A stretch of 36,637 nucleotides of DNA, taken from a virus. Location: positions 1 to 36,637 of IMG/VR virus record IMGVR_UViG_3300045988_143860, one strand, 5' to 3'. The translations under genes and the position numbers were made by a program. Positions within the stretch are counted from its first letter, which is position 1, and every line of letters starts with the position of its first letter. The notes beneath the pieces were generated by a model. It ran no database searches, was not told where the DNA came from, and saw only the letters and a program-made list of their open reading frames with translations. Positions 1 to 36,637 of the stretch are shown in pieces.

Positions 1-55
1 TCCCCCCATCTCCACATTTACCCCGCTGCCTCGTTGAGGTGGCGGGGTTTTTCGT
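1..55. repeat. attL: left copy of 55-bp direct repeat (att core)
   Basis: nt 1-55 = nt 36583-36637, 55/55 identical. Begins TCCCCCCATCTCCA, laid out like a T-stem 3' strand + 7-nt acceptor 3' strand + discriminator of a tRNA/tmRNA. Confidence 0.9.
21..52 (+). terminator. Intrinsic terminator inside the att repeat (probably the terminator of the targeted host RNA gene)
   Basis: CCCCGCTGCC (21-30) pairs with GGTGGCGGGG (38-47): 10 bp including two G:U, 7-nt loop, then TTTTT (48-52). Duplicated at 36603-36634. Confidence 0.6.
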
Positions 56-100: not shown

Positions 101-177
101 GTGGTTTATAGTGGTTTTTATTGGTTTCGTGTTGCACGTGGGTTGCACGACAAGTTGCACGCCAGAACTCGTGCAAC
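101..177. promoter_or_regulatory. Helically phased repeats between att core and int: candidate integrase arm-type / bending sites
   Basis: TGGTTT at 102-107, 112-117, 122-127. GTTGCACG at 131-138, 142-149, 154-161. Inverted CGTGCAAC at 170-177. One more GTTGCACG near attR (36512-36519). Confidence 0.45.
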
Positions 178-195
178 AAGACAAAAGGGGGAGCC

Positions 196-1350
196 GTGGG
201 CAAGCGTCGAGGGTTCGGAAACATCCGCAAACTGCCATCCGGCAGGTTCCAAGCGTCATACCGCGGCCCCGACGGTAACCGCCACAACGCGCCCATCACT
301 TTTGAGCGAAAACGGCAGGCAGAGCAGTGGCTCGCCACCGTCCAGGCCAGCATTGCCACTAGCACATGGCAGAGCGAAGAAGACCAGAAGCGGGAGCGCA
401 CATCGCGCCTCCAAGCAGAGCAGGCCGCACAATTGACATTCACCGACTGGGCGGAGCGCTGGCTATCCTCACTGGAGAGTATCGGCAGGGCTAAGAAAAC
501 GATCCAAACCTACCAGTACCGCGTGAAACAACTTCGGGAGATTTTCGGAAGTACCCCCATCGTCCTTATCACCCCGGACGACGTGCAAGACTGGTACAAC
601 CAAAGCATGAAAGAGCGAGGCCAAGGCGTCACACGACCCCTCTACATGACGCTATCTTCATGCATGGGCGCGGCAGTCAAGGCCGGGAAGCTCTCCCAGT
701 CTCCGTGTCGTGTAACAGGCGGACAACAGTACAAACCAGTCACAGACGCGCACCGCCAAGTGGCCACACCCAGCGAGGTACTAACATGCGCCGACAACAT
801 GCCACCAAGACTGCGCCTTACTGTCCTACTGGCAGCGTGGTGTGCACTACGCGAAGGCGAGATCATCGGACTCAAGCGCAAGGACTTCACGCTAGGGGAC
901 TCGCCCGTGGTGCGTGTCGAGCGACAAATACAATACCTTGCGGGTCGTGGCCCGGTAGTAGTGCCACCGAAAAGCGAGACAGGCAGGCGCACAATCAGCA
1001 TCCCCGCGGCACTCGTGCCAGTCATACAAGAGCACTTAGACGAGTGGGCGACACCAGGCGCAGAAGGCTTGGTGTTTCATCGTGAAACCGACTTATCCAT
1101 GCCGGTGCATCCAAACACGCTGCGTGGCGCATGGAACAAGGCGCGCGCGTCGGCGGGTATCCCGTGGTTCAAGTTCCACGACCTGCGCCATACGGGGTTG
1201 ACCGTATATGCGCAACAAGGCGCAACGCTCGCTGAGCTTCTGTATAGGGGTGGCCATAGTGATGTTGAGGTGGCCTTGCGGTATCAGCATGCGACGGCTG
1301 AGAGGGATAGGGCTCTGACTGGCCTCATGGACACCCATATCATCGTGTGA
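196..1350 (+). CDS. int: Tyrosine integrase (site-specific recombinase)
   Basis: ORF 121-1350. Likely true start is GTG 196, preceded by AAGGGGGAG (185-193), giving VGKRRGFGNIRKLPSGRFQASYRGPDG. Motifs ALREGEI (Arg I), HDLRHTG (HxxR), GHSDVEVALRYQH (catalytic Tyr). Confidence 0.95.
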   Translation: MGKRRGFGNIRKLPSGRFQASYRGPDGNRHNAPITFERKRQAEQWLATVQASIATSTWQSEEDQKRERTSRLQAEQAAQLTFTDWAERWLSSLESIGRAKKTIQTYQYRVKQLREIFGSTPIVLITPDDVQDWYNQSMKERGQGVTRPLYMTLSSCMGAAVKAGKLSQSPCRVTGGQQYKPVTDAHRQVATPSEVLTCADNMPPRLRLTVLLAAWCALREGEIIGLKRKDFTLGDSPVVRVERQIQYLAGRGPVVVPPKSETGRRTISIPAALVPVIQEHLDEWATPGAEGLVFHRETDLSMPVHPNTLRGAWNKARASAGIPWFKFHDLRHTGLTVYAQQGATLAELLYRGGHSDVEVALRYQHATAERDRALTGLMDTHIIV

Positions 1351-25268: not shown

Positions 25269-26143
25269 GCCTGGATTTCCTTTCTAGGATTTTGGGCGAA
25301 TTGTTGGCCGAGTTCGATCCAGCCTTGGACGCGGTCGCTGGTCGTGTCCTGGGCGGATCGTTTTCCTTGGCGTTGCGGAAGGGGATCGTCTTCCCACCGT
25401 CCGGCGTTGAGCCAGGGGCCTGGGTGTTTCGTGTAGGCGGGGTCGCGGTTGGGGTCGTCGCGGTAGCGGGCTGCCCCGGCGACGATCTCCGCGGGCTTTG
25501 CTCGCCGGATTGCTTTGCGCCATGCCTTGCGCGCCGCCTCTTTGCCTTCGCGTCTGGGGTAGGTGACCCAGAATTTGTCGAAGTCGTGGTTGGTGGTGGG
25601 TGCGGGGATCAGTTCGAAGGTGGTGTCTTGGGGATTGCCTTTGGTACCCCCGTGTGCGGGGGGTATGGGGGGGTATTCCCCTGTTCCCCTGTTCCCCTGT
25701 TCCCCTGTTCCTAGCGGCATTTCGCCGCGAGTTGCGGCAGATTGCGGCGGATTGTCTGACTGTCCAGTGTTTTCGCAGGTGAACAGCAGTTTGCCCTCGT
25801 CTGGCATGGGGAACCTTGAGGAAGTGCCCTCACGCACCCTCTGATGGCGATTCCATGACGGAATTTCGAAAAAAGTGCGTCCGTCAACCTCGTAGAAAAG
25901 CACGCCGAAAACTGCGGCAAGTTGCGGCAAGATGCCGCGAAAATCCGCAAACTCCTCGTGAGACAGGATTGCGAGGTCGTCATTGGGGAAGATCGCGCCC
26001 TCGAGCTCCTTCGGATTGCACGTCCCATGACCGGTGTCATCGGCCCAGCACCACAGTCCGATATAGGCCAGCCTGAGCACCGCTGACGCTTCCGCCGTGT
26101 GGGGGCTGTCGAAGAACTCAGGCTTGATCGTGCGGATCCGCAT
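25265..26143 (-). CDS. Putative replication initiator / replisome organiser
   Basis: 292 aa. N-terminus MRIRTIKPEFFDSPH...LRLAYIGLWCWADDTGHG is typical of phage replication-organiser proteins. A Gly-rich linker is encoded by iteron-like DNA repeats. Basic C-terminal domain. Confidence 0.5.
   Translation of the reverse strand: MRIRTIKPEFFDSPHTAEASAVLRLAYIGLWCWADDTGHGTCNPKELEGAIFPNDDLAILSHEEFADFRGILPQLAAVFGVLFYEVDGRTFFEIPSWNRHQRVREGTSSRFPMPDEGKLLFTCENTGQSDNPPQSAATRGEMPLGTGEQGNRGTGEYPPIPPAHGGTKGNPQDTTFELIPAPTTNHDFDKFWVTYPRREGKEAARKAWRKAIRRAKPAEIVAGAARYRDDPNRDPAYTKHPGPWLNAGRWEDDPLPQRQGKRSAQDTTSDRVQGWIELGQQFAQNPRKEIQA
25676..25711. repeat. Tandem 8-bp repeat (TTCCCCTG x4 plus a partial copy) inside the replication gene
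   Basis: Perfect copies at 25676, 25684, 25692, 25700. Preceded by GGGGGGTAT x2 (25658-25676). TTGCGGC(A/G)G pairs at 25732/25742 and 25912/25922. Confidence 0.9.
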
Positions 26144-31688: not shown

Positions 31689-31898
31689 TTATGCGTATGG
31701 TGTGATCCATTGGTTGAGTTCCTTGCCTCTAATGCGGATACGTTTCCCGGCTTTCACTGCTGGAAGGCTTTTTTCGTCAATCGCTGTTTGGACTGTCCAG
31801 CGGCCTAGACCCAGCCGCTTGCATACGGCGGTGATGCTGTAGTAGTCGTTTGGGTTGAACGCTTCACGCGGATCAGCTGGAAGTTCTTGGCTTGTCAT
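31689..31898 (-). CDS. Excisionase-family HTH protein (Xis candidate)
   Basis: Likely start ATG 31896-31898 after GGAGGAG. YYSITAVCKRLGLGRWTVQTAIDEKSLPAVKAGKRIRIRGKELNQW resembles excisionase/MerR-type winged HTH. Confidence 0.55.
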   Translation of the reverse strand: MTSQELPADPREAFNPNDYYSITAVCKRLGLGRWTVQTAIDEKSLPAVKAGKRIRIRGKELNQWITPYA

Positions 31899-31922
31899 CA
31901 CGCTTCTCCTCCTCTCGATACG

Positions 31923-32537
31923 ATGAAGAAACAAAGAATGGGGGCGCACATGGATATTCCCGCCTGGATATCAGCCATCGCTGCACTCGTTTCATTGATC
32001 GGCGCAGCCTTCTCCTTCTGGTGGAAGAACCTGTCAAAAGAAGCAACGAACGAAGCGCAAGTCGCACGTGATAGAGCAGAAAGACAAGCAACTGCGGCAG
32101 AACGAGAAGCCCAGTCGGCGCGCGACCAAGCCCGCGAAGCGTACCGGCTCAGGATCGTTGCCGAGGAGCAACTCAAAGAAGCACGCAGGCAAGCAGACTC
32201 AGCCGAAGCGCTCGTTAAAGAACTACGAGGGCAACGCGAAGCGGAACGCAACGCCACACCGTGGGCGATTCGCTGGGTGCACGGGGTCGTCTTCACGCTC
32301 GTTAACAACTCAGACGAACAACAGCGAGACGTGAACATCCGCCTGACTCTCGATGATGAGTTCATACAGGACAGGCTCATCGAAGCAGACGACTTCCCCT
32401 GCACGATCGACGCGCAAACAAACCGTGAATTCTGGTACCTTGGCCGACCTGGCCTCCACCCTATCGTGCACATCAGTTGGACCCGCCCAGACGGTCAAAC
32501 GGGTCACTGGGAAATACCTCTTCCCCCTGCGAGGTAG
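31923..32537 (+). CDS. Membrane-anchored coiled-coil protein encoded antisense to the early operon
   Basis: TM helix IPAWISAIAALVSLIGAAFSFWW, about 90-aa Arg/Glu/Ala coiled-coil, about 90-aa C-terminal domain. Start ambiguous (ATG 31923, 31938 or 31950). 3' end overlaps a convergent ORF by 65 nt. Confidence 0.5.
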   Translation: MKKQRMGAHMDIPAWISAIAALVSLIGAAFSFWWKNLSKEATNEAQVARDRAERQATAAEREAQSARDQAREAYRLRIVAEEQLKEARRQADSAEALVKELRGQREAERNATPWAIRWVHGVVFTLVNNSDEQQRDVNIRLTLDDEFIQDRLIEADDFPCTIDAQTNREFWYLGRPGLHPIVHISWTRPDGQTGHWEIPLPPAR

Positions 32538-32862
32538 AAAACGAGCGCACGCGCTCAACCGAAGCCTGACTCTCAGCTTCGCCAGCTGAAATATGCGACG
32601 GGAAATGCGAGAACGCTTCTGTTTGAGCCTGCGGGTCGAGGCGAGTAATCCAGTCATACATGCCCGTATGCTGTGCTCGATCAACAGCGAGCAACCAGAA
32701 GAACATCACCGCAACACTAATGAAAGAGCACGCTGTTATCGGCCCCGGATTCGCGCCCGCACATACAGCCGTCACCATCGATGTGACTGCCAACAACAGG
32801 TGAATCCTCGGAGTGCGAGTAATGATCATATTGTCTAGAACCCACTTGGTAAACGCTTTCAT
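32473..32862 (-). CDS. Membrane protein (two TM)
   Basis: Likely start ATG 32860-32862 after AAGGAG (ATGA overlap with upstream gene). MKAFTKWVLDNMIITRTPRIHLLLAVTSMVTAVCAG... Confidence 0.5.
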   Translation of the reverse strand: MKAFTKWVLDNMIITRTPRIHLLLAVTSMVTAVCAGANPGPITACSFISVAVMFFWLLAVDRAQHTGMYDWITRLDPQAQTEAFSHFPSHISAGEAESQASVERVRSFSTSQGEEVFPSDPFDRLGGSN

Positions 32863-33053
32863 CACGCTTCTTCTCCTTTCCGTTGCGTGGCGTGGGCTAG
32901 TACCTCGACGTCCTGACAAATAAGCGTCAGGGACACTTCCCACACGTCTTGATCAACGTGCTCGACTGTCACAGGACAGGCAGCAACCGGATACTCGTTA
33001 CCGTCCTTGTCGAATAGGACAGTCGTTTCGTTGTTCGTAATGCGCAAACTCAT
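32862..33053 (-). CDS. Hypothetical small early protein (63 aa)
   Basis: ATG 33051-33053 overlaps the cro-like stop (ATGA). MSLRITNNETTVLFDKDGNEYPVAACPVTVEHV... Confidence 0.5.
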   Translation of the reverse strand: MSLRITNNETTVLFDKDGNEYPVAACPVTVEHVDQDVWEVSLTLICQDVEVLAHATQRKGEEA

Positions 33054-33283
33054 TCCGCACTCTCCTTCCGTTGTGTGGAATGGGTGTCGGCGTCGGCGAC
33101 GAGCGCCGATGGTGTGGTGTCGAGTGCGAACGCGAAGGCCCGAATGTCGTCCCATGTGATTGGGGATATGCCTTTGGTCTTGCGGGCGACAGTCTTGGGA
33201 GTCATTCCGAGCGCTTTGGCGAGCGCATCGATGGTCATGCCCTTCCGGCCTTGCGCCGCCCTGATCTCAGCTGCGATGTCCAT
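33050..33283 (-). CDS. Cro-like XRE-family HTH regulator (first gene of the lytic operon)
   Basis: 77 aa. HTH MTIDALAKALGMTPKTVARKTKG. RBS AAAGGAGGA. Divergent from the cI-like gene. Confidence 0.75.
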   Translation of the reverse strand: MDIAAEIRAAQGRKGMTIDALAKALGMTPKTVARKTKGISPITWDDIRAFAFALDTTPSALVADADTHSTQRKESAE

Positions 33284-33333
33284 GCTTCCTCCTTTCAGGC
33301 ATTTTCTACCCCAATTGGAGTAGCTAATAACAG

Positions 33334-33364
33334 AATATAACCCTAATTAGGGTAGGTATGTCAA
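33334..33364 (-). promoter_or_regulatory. Early lytic promoter (PR-like)
   Basis: On the - strand: TTGACA (rc 33359-33364), 19 nt, TATATT (rc 33334-33339). The palindrome CCCTAATTAGGG fills the spacer. Confidence 0.5.
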
Positions 33365-33396
33365 TTTTAGGGTCGTGCGTGTCTCAATTAGGGTAG
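33341..33396. promoter_or_regulatory. Operator repeats of the genetic switch
   Basis: CCCTAATTAGGGTA (33341-33354, perfect 12-bp palindrome), CAATTTTAGGGTC (33362-33374), TCAATTAGGGTAG (33384-33396). A further CCAATTGG at 33311-33318. Confidence 0.6.
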
Positions 33397-33406
33397 TCTG
33401 CGGAGT

Positions 33407-33820
33407 ATGGGCAGGAAGTCGCTTACCGTCGGAGACTTTTCGCGCGCTGTCGCTCGCGCACTGTCGGAGCAAGCAGAGTACATTGGGAAGAGTCAGGCCG
33501 CTATCGCGAGAGAAACGGGAATCTCTCAGAATCGCGTTAACCTCATCATGAGGGCGGAGCGGGCGATCACCGTGGAAGAGACGCGAATTATCTGCGAAGC
33601 GCTAGGCATTTCCGTCCTGAGCGTCCTCCGCGACGCCGAAGCAATGTGGACACGTGATCAGCGCGCCGATAACGTTGTCGACTTCCCGCACACGCAGGAA
33701 GAGAACCTACCCGACTTCACCAAACTCGCCGCACGCAAAGTCACCAACCGCCCAGAATGGGAAAAACGACAAGCCCTCGATGACATTGGCGAAGAAAACC
33801 AAGACCCAGTAGATTCTTAA
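33407..33820 (+). CDS. cI-like XRE-family repressor
   Basis: 137 aa. HTH SQAAIARETGISQNRVNLIMRAERAITVEETRIICEALG. Divergent from the cro-like gene. TAGTCT lies 7 nt upstream of the ATG and there is no usable SD. Confidence 0.8.
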   Translation: MGRKSLTVGDFSRAVARALSEQAEYIGKSQAAIARETGISQNRVNLIMRAERAITVEETRIICEALGISVLSVLRDAEAMWTRDQRADNVVDFPHTQEENLPDFTKLAARKVTNRPEWEKRQALDDIGEENQDPVDS

Positions 33821-33844
33821 GAAGAACAACAGATAGGTTTAACA

Positions 33845-34945
33845 ATGGAGTTCACCGACGCGCTCGCCGCTCTTGCCGAAAAAGTTCGCACTCAGTACGA
33901 ACTGATTGAAACGGAAGAAGCGACAAAGAATGCTTTTATCATGCCGTTCATCTCGACAGTCCTCGGCTACGACGTATTCAACCCGCAAGAAGTCATCCCA
34001 GAATTCACTGCCGACATCGGCGTTAAACGTGGCGAAAAAGTCGACTATGCAATCTGCAACGGTGAGAAAGTCCAGATACTCATTGAATGCAAGAAGATCA
34101 ACGGTCAGTTAAGCCTTGAACATGCGGGTCAGCTCTTCCGATACTTCTCTGTCACCGAAGCAAGAATCGCGATCCTGACAAACGGAAAAGTCTGGAACTT
34201 CTACACTGACCTTGACGCCCCTAACAAGATGGACGATAAGCCTTTCCTTGTTCTCGACCTTGGAGACGTCGATGAAGTCCTACTGCCGGAACTGAAGAAA
34301 CTCACGAAAGATAGCTTTGACCTCGAAAGCATTGTATCTGCCGCAGAAGAGCTTAAGTATCTTGGTGCGATCCGTCGCGCTATCGCTGCTGAATTCAAAG
34401 AGCCGAGCCTCGATTTCGTGAGACTCTTGACCTCACGCGTTTATGATGGTCGATTCACGCCTGCGATCCAGGATAAGTTCCGCCCGCTGGTCGAAAAGGC
34501 TCTCCGTCAATTCCTCAATGAGCGAGTGAATGATCGGATCAAGACTGCCCTCGATGCTGGGGATGGGGCGCCGGTTCCGCTAACGGTTGCTGTTCAAGTG
34601 CCAGTCATGGAAGTCGAAGAAGAGCCAGAGACTGAAGAAGCATCAAGTGACGGTATTGAGACCACAGAAGAAGAACTTTTCGCGTACCGGATTATCAAGG
34701 CGATCGCGTGCGCTGAAGTTGCGCAAGACCGCATTGCGTACCGCGATGTTAAGAGCTACTTCTCGGTGCTCCTTGATGATAATAACCGTAAGCCGATTGC
34801 GCGTTGCTACTTCAACTCGAAGACGCGAAAGTGGATCTCATTCATTGATGAAGACCGGAGCGAAACGCGCTACGAGCTTGAAACCATCGAAGATATCTAC
34901 CTACACGCCGAAGCGATTCGTGAGGCTGTCAGGATGTACCGATAG
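33845..34945 (+). CDS. HsdR_N-type PD-(D/E)xK nuclease-like protein (366 aa), function unknown
   Basis: TEEATKNAFIMPFISTVLGYD...GEKVDYAI...VQILIECKK...ILTNGKVWNFY matches the type I restriction HsdR N-terminal / PD-(D/E)xK pattern. Helical middle, acidic linker, C-terminal ~90-aa domain (RDVKSYFSVLLDDNNRKPIARCYF). Confidence 0.8.
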   Translation: MEFTDALAALAEKVRTQYELIETEEATKNAFIMPFISTVLGYDVFNPQEVIPEFTADIGVKRGEKVDYAICNGEKVQILIECKKINGQLSLEHAGQLFRYFSVTEARIAILTNGKVWNFYTDLDAPNKMDDKPFLVLDLGDVDEVLLPELKKLTKDSFDLESIVSAAEELKYLGAIRRAIAAEFKEPSLDFVRLLTSRVYDGRFTPAIQDKFRPLVEKALRQFLNERVNDRIKTALDAGDGAPVPLTVAVQVPVMEVEEEPETEEASSDGIETTEEELFAYRIIKAIACAEVAQDRIAYRDVKSYFSVLLDDNNRKPIARCYFNSKTRKWISFIDEDRSETRYELETIEDIYLHAEAIREAVRMYR

Positions 34946-34963
34946 TCGTTAGAAGCAGCCTTG

Positions 34964-35071
34964 AAGCTACTCGCTGCGCGTAAAGTCACCAACCGTCCAG
35001 AATGGGAAGCAATTCAAGCGCCTAATGACATCGGCGAAGAAAACCAAGACCCCGGGGACTACGAAAACTAG
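34964..35071 (+). pseudogene. Remnant 3' end of a second, related repressor gene
   Basis: 34970-35052 aligns without gaps to 33725-33807 (69/83 identical). Reads ..LAARKVTNRPEWEAIQAPNDIGEENQDPGDYEN*. The first 13 codons differ from the intact repressor only at synonymous third positions. Confidence 0.6.
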
Positions 35072-35114
35072 CAGTGCAAAAAGGTTTACCCATGGTCTCC
35101 CATACGCTTTACCT

Positions 35115-35513
35115 ATGTGGCACCCGTGGAAAGCCTTGCGTGAAGCAAGCGAGATAGATCTGATCTGGACGGAGAACCTCCCAGACGGCATACTGGGTGC
35201 GACCAACGGAAAACAAATCTGGCTATCACTGAAGCAACTGCAGGTCGAACGCCGATGCACGCTCACACACGAACTAGTACACATCGAACGTGGACACAAA
35301 GGGTGCCAACCGGCGGCAGTCGAAAAACAAGTATGCGCTGAAGCAGCAAGGCGTCTCATCACCATTGACCAGTTGCGCGCGTGGCTCCCATGGGCGCTCA
35401 GCATGGAAGAGCTTGCCGATTGCCTTTGGGTGGATGAGGCTACGCTAAAAACCCGAATGGAAAACCTTACCGCCGAAGAATTGCAGGAACTCTCCATCGT
35501 TCTCAGCGACTAA
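35115..35513 (+). CDS. ImmA/IrrE-family (M78, COG2856-type) zinc metallopeptidase
   Basis: RRCTLTHELVHIERGH (HExxH) with ImmA-like context (ILGATNGKQIWLS; EKQVCAEAARRLI). Track ORF starts at 35025, but those 30 residues are Lys/Thr-rich and overlap the remnant. ATG 35115 has TACGCT 6 nt upstream. Confidence 0.8.
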   Translation: MWHPWKALREASEIDLIWTENLPDGILGATNGKQIWLSLKQLQVERRCTLTHELVHIERGHKGCQPAAVEKQVCAEAARRLITIDQLRAWLPWALSMEELADCLWVDEATLKTRMENLTAEELQELSIVLSD

Positions 35514-35647
35514 CCGCCGAGCTGTAGCGTCGCCCGCAGCCTCATCTCCGCACACGCCTACCGTTACGAGTCGCCACTAAACATTCCGCTCCAGATATCA
35601 TGGGAGCCAAGACGACGAACTCTCCCAACAAGACCCATAAAATTTGA

Positions 35648-36307
35648 ATGTACGCATTTATAGATGACTCCGGCGATGCCGGAATGAAATTCAAGCGAGG
35701 CTCCTCAACACATCTCGTGTTGTCGATGTGCCTATTCCAATCCGAGCAAGCGTGGAAATCAACAGAAACCGCGCTAGCTGACTTGCCTGACTACATGAAA
35801 ACAGTAGGAGAATTTAAACACTCCAAAATGAAAGACCGGCACAAAGAAGCATTTTTCAAACAAATCGAAAACGAAGACTTCTATGTCCGCGCAATAATCG
35901 TCGACAAAACAAAGCTAACAAGCCAATTCCTAGCCAGCCACGCCAACGAGATGAAAACTTACTTTCTGATGCAGCTATTAACCCACACGTGGGGGCAGGT
36001 GCAAGACTGCAAAATCGTCATCGACGGGGCGGACTTACAAGCCTTTGGAATGAAAAGCACTGACTACCTGTTCGAAAAAGCCAACGAAAATAGGAAGATT
36101 AGAGTCGCTTCGGAAGTAATCTGCGCAGACTCCAAAGATTCGTTGGGGTTACAGTTAGCCGACATGGTGGCCGGAACTATAATGGCAGGACTTAAAAAAG
36201 GTCAACCCATGATGGATACTGACAGGTGGCTACAGGTGCGCCAGCGAGCCTACCAGCCTGAAGGCAACTGGTGGTTGTTTAGGAGCCGATCAGGGCAAAG
36301 TAAATGA
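35648..36307 (+). CDS. DUF3800-family protein
   Basis: N-terminal MYAFIDDSGD and C-terminal DSKDSLGLQLADMVAG are the DUF3800 hallmarks. Sampled lines are 37-48% GC. Last gene before attR. Confidence 0.8.
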   Translation: MYAFIDDSGDAGMKFKRGSSTHLVLSMCLFQSEQAWKSTETALADLPDYMKTVGEFKHSKMKDRHKEAFFKQIENEDFYVRAIIVDKTKLTSQFLASHANEMKTYFLMQLLTHTWGQVQDCKIVIDGADLQAFGMKSTDYLFEKANENRKIRVASEVICADSKDSLGLQLADMVAGTIMAGLKKGQPMMDTDRWLQVRQRAYQPEGNWWLFRSRSGQSK

Positions 36308-36582: not shown

Positions 36583-36637
36583 TCCCCCCATCTCCACATT
36601 TACCCCGCTGCCTCGTTGAGGTGGCGGGGTTTTTCGT
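36583..36637. repeat. attR: right copy of 55-bp direct repeat (truncated by window end)
   Basis: Identical to nt 1-55. Includes the hairpin+T5 terminator (36603-36634), which here would terminate the + strand cargo operon. Confidence 0.9.

Follow-up and report, generated by a model that had tools for sequence, protein, structure and literature searches.

Why should a phage genome carry the 3′ end of its repressor gene twice, once in place and once as a truncated copy in front of a peptidase gene? The question arises from an IMG/VR virus record of 36,637 nucleotides (nt) (IMGVR_UViG_3300045988_143860, positions 1 to 36,637, referred to here in its entirety as the window), which is a temperate phage of Schaalia (Actinomycetaceae). 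In what would be its lysogeny operon, with the order repressor, ImmA-like metallopeptidase, integrase, an XRE/cI-like repressor and the peptidase are separated by a gene for a 366-amino acid (aa) nuclease-like protein of the HsdR_N type, hereafter the cargo, and by a remnant of a repressor 3′ end. A first-pass annotation of the sequence had read this remnant as a scar left when another immunity allele, together with the cargo, replaced the body of a resident repressor. The account that we favour, and regard as probable, is that the cargo and its two flanking tails form a cassette of single origin which has spread through recombination in the repressor tail, and that the remnant is the scar of this process.

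A repeat search of the window returned a gap-free direct repeat of 84 nt (33724-33807 and 34969-35052) with 83% identity and a spacing of 1245 nt. The 83-bp duplicate of the repressor 3′ end described earlier is thereby upheld, with 69 of 83 identities between 33725-33807 and 34970-35052. In an ungapped self-BLAST of the window the pair scores 90.9 bits (E 6e-19), as against 36 bits for the best self-match (mean 30) in 30 dinucleotide-preserving shuffles of the window, and the repeat is thus far above chance. The two copies differ in ten codons, six of them synonymously and four non-synonymously; on recount, the four differences within the first 13 codons (LAARKVTNRPEWE), namely GCC/GCT, GCA/GCG, CGC/CGT and CGC/CGT, are indeed all synonymous third-position changes. 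The 84-nt sequence occurs twice in the window and in relatives is limited to repressor 3′ ends or remnants of them. A dispersed repeated element of the repetitive extragenic palindromic (REP) or miniature inverted-repeat transposable element (MITE) kind was rejected on this distribution and on the codon phase of the substitutions; a general repeated element was one of the findings that, according to the annotation, would overturn its reading.

Close relatives of the locus were collected by searching IMG/VR, GTDB genomes and metagenomes with the peptidase, the Actinomycetaceae assemblies covered being species representatives. Their hosts are Schaalia turicensis; a more distant relative, at 63%, came from Actinomyces culturomici. 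BLASTN of 33284-35650 against 50,697 GenBank phages revealed no relative of the whole region; the matches, at ~70% nt identity and to the nuclease domain of the cargo only, came from Corynebacterium, Pseudomonas, Lacticaseibacillus and Streptococcus phages. Two relatives are empty sites: L001 (identical to L005, S. turicensis UMB0250) and L043. Their full-length repressors end in ...KLAARKVTNRPEWDAIQALNDIGEESQDPGDYED and ...EATQALNDIGEESQDPGDYEN, respectively, with the stop 43 nt before the ATG of a peptidase gene 92-97% identical to that of the window, and the consensus of the two intact tails is ...LAARKVTNRPEW(D/E)A(I/T)QALNDIGEESQDPGDYE(D/N). The full-length repressor that the annotation expected beside the peptidase in related phages therefore exists, and the ancestral Xre-repressor/ImmA-peptidase pair that it postulated is real. 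The remnant differs from the intact tails at 7-8 of 102 nt, and the adjoining peptidase gene is 92-93% identical in nt; because the two divergences are equal, remnant and peptidase share ancestry. The right copy of the repeat is accordingly a truncated repressor 3′ end, as had been proposed. It has its own stop (TAG, 35069-35071) 43 nt before the peptidase ATG at 35115, and it lies in frame with the cargo open reading frame (ORF), 8 codons after the TAG of the latter. The empty-site tails end in ...QDPGDYEN and a stop, unlike the left junction of the cassette, ...QDP^VDS and a stop (the caret marks the joint here and below).

Neither the 366-aa protein nor the repressor had an exact match when looked up by sequence; a protein 99% identical to the cargo (P0001) was found on four more contigs (L132-L135). 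The left junction, CAAGACCC^AGTAGATT(C/A)TTAA followed by ~24 nt to the ATG, is common to the window and these four, in which the inner junction is near-identical (1-2 substitutions, and a 3-nt insertion in L134). The right junction, ...CCTTGAAGCT^ACTCGC, that is, TAG plus TCGTTAGAAGCAGCCTTGAAGCT^ACTCGC... (SLEAALKL^LAARKV), is the same on all five contigs. Since the inner junctions are shared, they arose once. The repressors in front of the cassette in L132-L135 represent three other alleles, 60%, 49% and 57% identical to that of the window, which means that the movement of the cargo is not tied to the repressor body. Variants of the tail also change sides: EKRQALDD, which is functional in the window, forms the remnant in L132/L133, whose functional copy is ARRALD(D/S); the latter variant forms the remnant in L134. 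The moving unit is therefore tail-cargo-tail, spread by recombination within the conserved repressor tail.

L043 carries the repressor allele of the window without any cargo, with 3 mismatches in 1857 nt (window 31864-33720); a cluster of mismatches sets in only at 33721, where the repeat starts. The left side is 99.8% identical and the right side 92%. A comparison with L002 showed left flanks 99% identical and right flanks 92-94% identical, with different cro/repressor genes between them. Simple insertion of the cargo into an L043-like parent was rejected, as the right side reaches 92% identity versus 99.8% on the left. These differing histories agree with one part of the earlier reading, in which the last event was the arrival of a donor fragment (another allele, its tail and the 366-aa gene) that replaced the resident repressor body and spared the last 33 codons of the resident; the different allelic types of the two tail copies (EKRQALDD versus AIQAPND) point the same way. 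The replacement itself, however, is not needed: in L043 the same allele stands beside a remnant-like tail and ImmA with no cargo, the same cargo junctions lie behind three other alleles, and a crossover inside the tail fits the data just as well. We consider such a replacement possible but unlikely.

Under the favoured account, the ancestral arrangement, still seen in relatives, would have had the repressor stop 43 nt before the peptidase ATG. One past illegitimate joining may have placed the HsdR_N nuclease-like gene behind a repressor tail, and the same joining would have fused the 3′ flank of that gene to the LAARKV codons of the resident tail, the product being a tail (...QDP^VDS and stop), the cargo, a remnant tail (LAARKV...GDYEN and stop) and the peptidase. 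As the ~130-nt tail is conserved in DNA among heteroimmune phages, its two copies could serve as homology arms; the tail-cargo-tail unit would then have been moved behind various repressor alleles by homologous recombination, and variants of both copies shuffled. The route of the cassette, which we infer, may have been a double crossover, or an excised circle may have entered by a single crossover of Campbell type. The remnant would persist because it is young and because the sequence downstream of it, before the peptidase gene, must be kept; all but the first ~4-9 nt of the 43-nt spacer are retained in every relative. A bolder version would make the tail a universal landing pad, whereby tail-bracketed cassettes excise as circles and re-insert by a single homologous crossover, with no recombinase, into any heteroimmune phage of the group, the ~365-aa HsdR_N family (phrog_4225, >8000 homologues) being an uncharacterised single-gene anti-phage defence carried in this way. 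This version is a conjecture that we think rather doubtful.

In its present state, the remnant is most likely a non-coding, non-functional scar that doubles as the right-hand homology arm. This is indicated by a proline at a column that is an invariant leucine in all eight intact tails (QAPND versus QAL[DN][DE]), by its truncation or absence in other cassettes, and by the lack of a promoter-like site in front of it. A function can nevertheless be imagined: the remnant could encode an ImmA decoy or substrate-mimic peptide (TTG 34961, 36 aa), serve as a readthrough extension that puts the nuclease under ImmA control, or act as a cis element for peptidase expression. Its frame is open in the five cassette loci despite sequence differences and continues that of the cargo ORF, and it includes the conserved LAAR...GEE.QDP motif. 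But the five loci share one junction, from which the in-frame position is inherited, so that the frame counts as one coincidence with odds of 1 in 3; the remnant of L133/L135 is shortened (GEESQE and stop), and RmrT/RmrA come after it in place of this peptidase; in L132/L134, SoFic stands between remnant and peptidase; and L002-type insertions without any remnant still keep the peptidase. Furthermore, alignments with homologues of the cargo extend to the final residues of the 366-aa protein, where the homologues end without a tail, and the in-frame remnant is therefore not part of the cargo protein. The homologue lengths (360-368 aa) lend no support, at the level of sequence, to readthrough of the cargo TAG. 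A functional remnant thus appears very improbable, and its open frame is probably due to recent exchange with functional tails.

The recombination proposed above depends on a tail that is shared between immunity alleles. The motif P..EE.LPDFT.LAAR.VT.RPEW...AL..IGEE.QDP is nearly invariant in eight repressors with DNA-binding parts 39-60% identical. In more distant loci with such a peptidase (L008-L048; Cellulomonas, Janibacter, Nocardioides, Phycicoccus, Ornithinimicrobium and others), AAR[KRTAVG] falls within the last 45 residues of the ORF upstream of the ImmA relative in 16 of 28 loci, versus 5.9% per ORF in the control. The repressor tails there read AAR[KRT]... and then a charged, Pro-rich end, several with ...GEESQ(D/E)... 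like the window, and the peptidase follows after either 30-62 nt or 113-1171 nt. IrrE cleaves DdrO at L106/R107, 23 residues from the C-terminus (PMC6868357), and ImmA cleaves ImmR at F95-M96 of 127 residues (PMC8960796). By analogy with these pairs, we hypothesize that the tail is conserved because it holds an ImmA recognition or cleavage site, for which the AAR-containing segment is the candidate element. Such a site would account for the conservation across immunity alleles, and hence for the availability of the tail as a recombination boundary.

The interval between the repressor tail and ImmA is a cargo hotspot, with variable content between conserved flanks and with empty sites among its states. 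It is empty in L001 and L043 and holds the HsdR_N gene in the window, HsdR_N with SoFic in L132/L134, HsdR_N with RmrT/RmrA in L133/L135, PD-Lambda-1 in L002/L042/L047, a three-gene cassette in L003, and PD-Lambda-5 with DUF3800 in L004 (A. culturomici). PADLOC recognised several of these as anti-phage systems: PD-Lambda-1 (5e-101), PD-Lambda-5_A (7e-103) and PD-Lambda-5_B (4e-108), SoFic (2e-54), and RmrA (7e-70) with RmrT (5e-17). All inserts leave the repressor frame intact, and they are joined to it in different ways. The 455-aa gene of L002/L042/L047 came without duplication, ~24 nt of the tail end having been replaced (...ENQ^IDPYELD and stop). The L003 insert has three ORFs and a 36-nt duplication, its remnant (GEESQDPGDYEN and stop) being fused in frame to the last ORF, of 152 aa. 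The second insert of L132/L134 starts directly after the stop of the remnant. In S. turicensis ACS-279-V-Col4 (L003 5499-5957; also L006/L028), the 152-aa ORF reads through a 12-codon tail remnant and uses its stop, so that the scar forms the C-terminus of a cargo protein there; this ORF matches PD-T4-9_C weakly. DUF3800 lies inside the repressor-ImmA interval in L004 and also in L034.

Several different cassettes at one position, and a cargo flanked by direct repeats, would also be expected if the tail were an att-like site for a site-specific recombinase, as in an integron- or satellite-like cassette system. We judge this extremely unlikely. The three or four cassette types are joined at different nucleotides within ~100 nt, with no common core; the duplication measures 84 nt in one cassette and 36 nt in another, and a third has a small deletion; the repeat is coding sequence, and its substitutions follow codon phase; and no recombinase gene or domain was found within any cargo of the slot. 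The varied junction positions and the absence of recombinases from the cargo point to illegitimate recombination followed by selection and not to a site-specific system.

The 366-aa cargo protein consists, in an AlphaFold2 (AF2) model with a predicted local distance difference test (pLDDT) score of 77, of an N-terminal PD-(D/E)xK (HsdR_N) nuclease-like domain, a helical middle part, a disordered acidic linker (241-270) and a C-terminal alpha/beta domain. D67, E81 and K83 are invariant in 33 homologues. A Foldseek search of the PDB with the model returned restriction-endonuclease domains only, at E 5e-3 or weaker, and the C-terminal domain gave no match. The family comprises >8000 matches at E <1e-20, of 360-368 aa, under the name 'type I restriction endonuclease / HsdR N-terminal domain protein'. 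A literature search for this family in prophage lysogeny modules found nothing relevant. In 63 non-redundant IMG/VR loci, its upstream neighbours are Peptidase_S24 (25), HTH_3 (20) and M78 (5), and downstream stand integrases (10), M78 (2) and genes of defence type (TIR, Abi_2, DUF3800, Fic). Since the repressors upstream are of any type and the downstream genes are integrases or of defence type, the family is a habitual accessory gene of lysogeny operons and not a specific partner of ImmA. In Streptococcus phage Javan316, a homologue lies between a regulator pair and the integrase. Judging from its position, the cargo is likely to be expressed from the lysogenic operon and to serve in anti-phage defence or superinfection exclusion.

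The nuclease-like protein might instead take an active part in the repressor/ImmA switch, perhaps as a sensor of DNA damage or infection that activates the peptidase, so that its position would be under selection. This idea draws on Corynebacterium phage Juicebox, an actinophage unrelated to the window, in which the same gene order recurs (L051, NC_048070.1 27667-30270: repressor gp34, 'endonuclease' gp33, metallo-protease gp32), gp33 being 49% identical to the 366-aa protein over its full length; ImmA-like genes also adjoin cargo homologues in several IMG/VR loci. Yet the switch is present without the cargo in L001 and L043, the family mostly follows S24-type, self-cleaving repressors (25 of the 63 loci) and precedes integrases, with M78 at the small counts given above, and unrelated defence genes fill the same slot. 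A role in the switch is therefore improbable.

Some observations weigh against the single-origin cassette with a defence cargo. The PADLOC match of the cargo is weak (type IIG restriction endonuclease-methyltransferase, 1.8e-4) and covers the N-terminal domain only, which does not identify a known defence gene, and the putative defence role is argued from position. The gene order of Juicebox could point to a functional link and not to a shared hotspot. An open remnant frame in each of the five loci with the cassette would equally be expected of a functional peptide. No sampled relative exceeds 95% identity on the peptidase side, and the direct parent of the window is thus not among them. Finally, a single Campbell-type crossover predicts a complementary mosaic, and no clean pattern of this kind was seen in the five cassette copies.

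The positions of the elements discussed here and of their neighbours are compiled in Table 1.

Table 1. Elements of the repressor-peptidase region and adjoining genes in the window (positions in nt; a caret marks a joint).
Feature	Position	Strand	Basis or remark
Tyrosine integrase	121..1350	+	Pfam Phage_integrase 2e-13; 3′ of the DUF3800 gene if the contig is circular
Cro-like helix-turn-helix (HTH) gene, 77 aa, divergent from the repressor	33050..33283	-	Pfam HTH_31 2e-08, HTH_26 2e-06
Divergent intergenic control region, three motif copies, putative operators	33284..33406		Read in the sequence
XRE/cI-like repressor, 137 aa	33407..33820	+	Pfam HTH_3 1.4e-06; PHROG transcriptional repressor 1.9e-09
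Conserved C-terminal tail of the repressor, P94 to end	33686..33820	+	Invariant alignment columns
Left (functional) copy of the 84-nt repeat	33724..33807	+
Left inner junction: repressor end ...QDP^VDS and stop (AGTAGATTCTTAA), plus 24-nt spacer to the cargo ATG	33808..33844	+
Cargo gene, 366 aa, HsdR_N nuclease-like	33845..34945	+	Pfam HSDR_N 4e-12; phrog_4225 'endonuclease' 3e-123
Right inner junction, 23 nt (TCGTTAGAAGCAGCCTTGAAGCT), cargo stop to remnant	34946..34968	+	Identical in L132-L135
Remnant: right copy of the repeat (34969-35052) plus resident ending GDYEN and stop (35053-35071)	34969..35071	+
43-nt spacer 5′ of the peptidase ATG	35072..35114	+	Kept in relatives with or without cargo
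ImmA/IrrE-like metallopeptidase, 132 aa, HELVH motif	35115..35513	+	phrog_87 metallo-protease 2e-19
DUF3800 gene, second accessory gene between peptidase and integrase	35648..36307	+	Pfam 2.6e-14; PADLOC PDC-M04A 4e-09

The repressor has an XRE-type HTH domain, its HTH_3 score of 28.7 bits exceeding the 23-bit cut-off. In the cro/repressor intergenic region the motif A(A/T)TT(A/T)AGGGT(A/C)G occurs three times (~33344-33356, 33364-33376 and 33385-33397), and the copies are likely to be operators, to judge from the motif and its place; the first copy belongs to the palindrome ACCCTAATTAGGGT. The peptidase remains below the 22-bit Pfam cut-off for Peptidase_M78 (0.0067, 16.7 bits), and a profile search against PDB sequences gave no meaningful match; its HExxH motif (HELVH) is invariant in an alignment of five relatives. 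An upstream peptidase start at ATG 35025, which would overlap the remnant in another frame, was rejected, as the extension is not conserved and the L001 protein starts MWHPW. The spacer in front of the peptidase (window 35080-35117; L001, L002, L042, L043, L047) has a conserved AAAGG followed by an out-of-frame ATG (35092), which in most relatives opens a 6-codon mini-ORF closed by a TAA just 5′ of the peptidase ATG (CTTTAACCATG). In the window this TAA is TAC and the frame continues, and the mini-ORF is not conserved in L003; it may serve translational coupling. The repressor-cargo-remnant interval holds no promoter- or terminator-like sites except a weak promoter match inside the cargo gene.

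The DUF3800 gene looks like a second accessory slot or cargo; it is absent from L001, where the integrase directly follows the peptidase. The first and last 55 nt of the window (1-55 and 36583-36637) match at 100% (101 bits); the simplest reading is an overlap left by circular assembly of the contig. On a circular map the order would be repressor, cargo, ImmA, DUF3800, a terminator-like hairpin (36602-36630) and the integrase on the plus strand. GC content falls to 0.507 across 34001-36000, which spans cargo, peptidase and DUF3800, versus ~0.55-0.64 in the rest of the phage, which would fit accessory DNA from another source. In the early-gene region, a unit of 8 nt is repeated perfectly in a short tandem array (25676-25711; 25676-25703 versus 25684-25711), and no tRNA genes were found in the window.

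The scar marks a narrowly bounded slot, from the repressor tail to the start of ImmA, in which defence genes gather in Actinomycetaceae prophages. Its position nominates candidates for defence, namely the 366-aa HsdR_N family, the three-gene cassette of L003 and DUF3800, and its left boundary, the LAAR...GEE.QDP tail, is a candidate recognition or cleavage element for ImmA. To our knowledge, no repressor/ImmA pair of this group has been studied. The pair can be compared with ImmR/ImmA of ICEBs1 and IrrE(PprI)/DdrO of Deinococcus, both composed of an XRE repressor and a COG2856/M78 protein. It shares with them an HTH repressor, a small HExxH metallopeptidase and an integrase in the operon, and the two genes are adjacent, co-oriented and 43 nt apart in the empty-site relatives L001/L005 and L043. 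The known cuts lie near the repressor C-terminus, and LAAR stands ~27 residues from the end here. In contrast, the peptidase of the window has 132 aa and scores below the Pfam M78 cut-off, its gene is co-oriented with that of the repressor but split from it by a 1.25-kilobase (kb) cassette, and the tail sequence is unrelated to those of ImmR and DdrO, its cleavage being putative.

As a kind, the slot is already known, being a prophage defence or moron hotspot; the new details are where it lies, the hosts concerned and the duplication of a coding tail. Thus, current concepts are unchanged and are extended to a new host group and a new position. In lactococcal phages, sie genes lie between the integrase and the repressor, and in mycobacteriophages defence genes are found beside the immunity cassette. 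Prophage-encoded defence hotspots have been described for P2 and P4 (bioRxiv 10.1101/2021.01.21.427644). As in these hotspots and in morons, conserved flanks (repressor tail and peptidase) enclose a slot that varies between close relatives and includes recognised defence systems, and the slot belongs to an operon expected to be expressed in the lysogen. Unlike them, it lies inside a repressor-antirepressor pair, its hosts are Actinomycetaceae, and one cassette has a duplicate of the repressor 3′ end on both sides and stands behind four immunity alleles.

Mycobacteriophages such as BPs have integration-dependent immunity, with attP inside the 3′ end of the repressor gene. Recombination at this end alters the repressor C-terminus both there and here; however, one circular phage genome contains both copies of the tail here, the integrase gene lies beyond the contig junction at a distance of 1.6 kb, the joints differ from cassette to cassette, and neither an att core nor a truncation-dependent switch is evident. 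Lambdoid immunity regions exchange as modules via short conserved boundary sequences, as the modular theory of phage evolution holds. In both cases the swapped immunity module ends at a stretch conserved among heteroimmune phages, which here is the repressor tail. The boundary in the Schaalia phages differs in being protein-coding, probably conserved because of a partner protease, and duplicated around a cargo, and it would thus exemplify a short conserved coding segment that acts both as the swap boundary of an immunity module and as the homology arms by which a cargo spreads.

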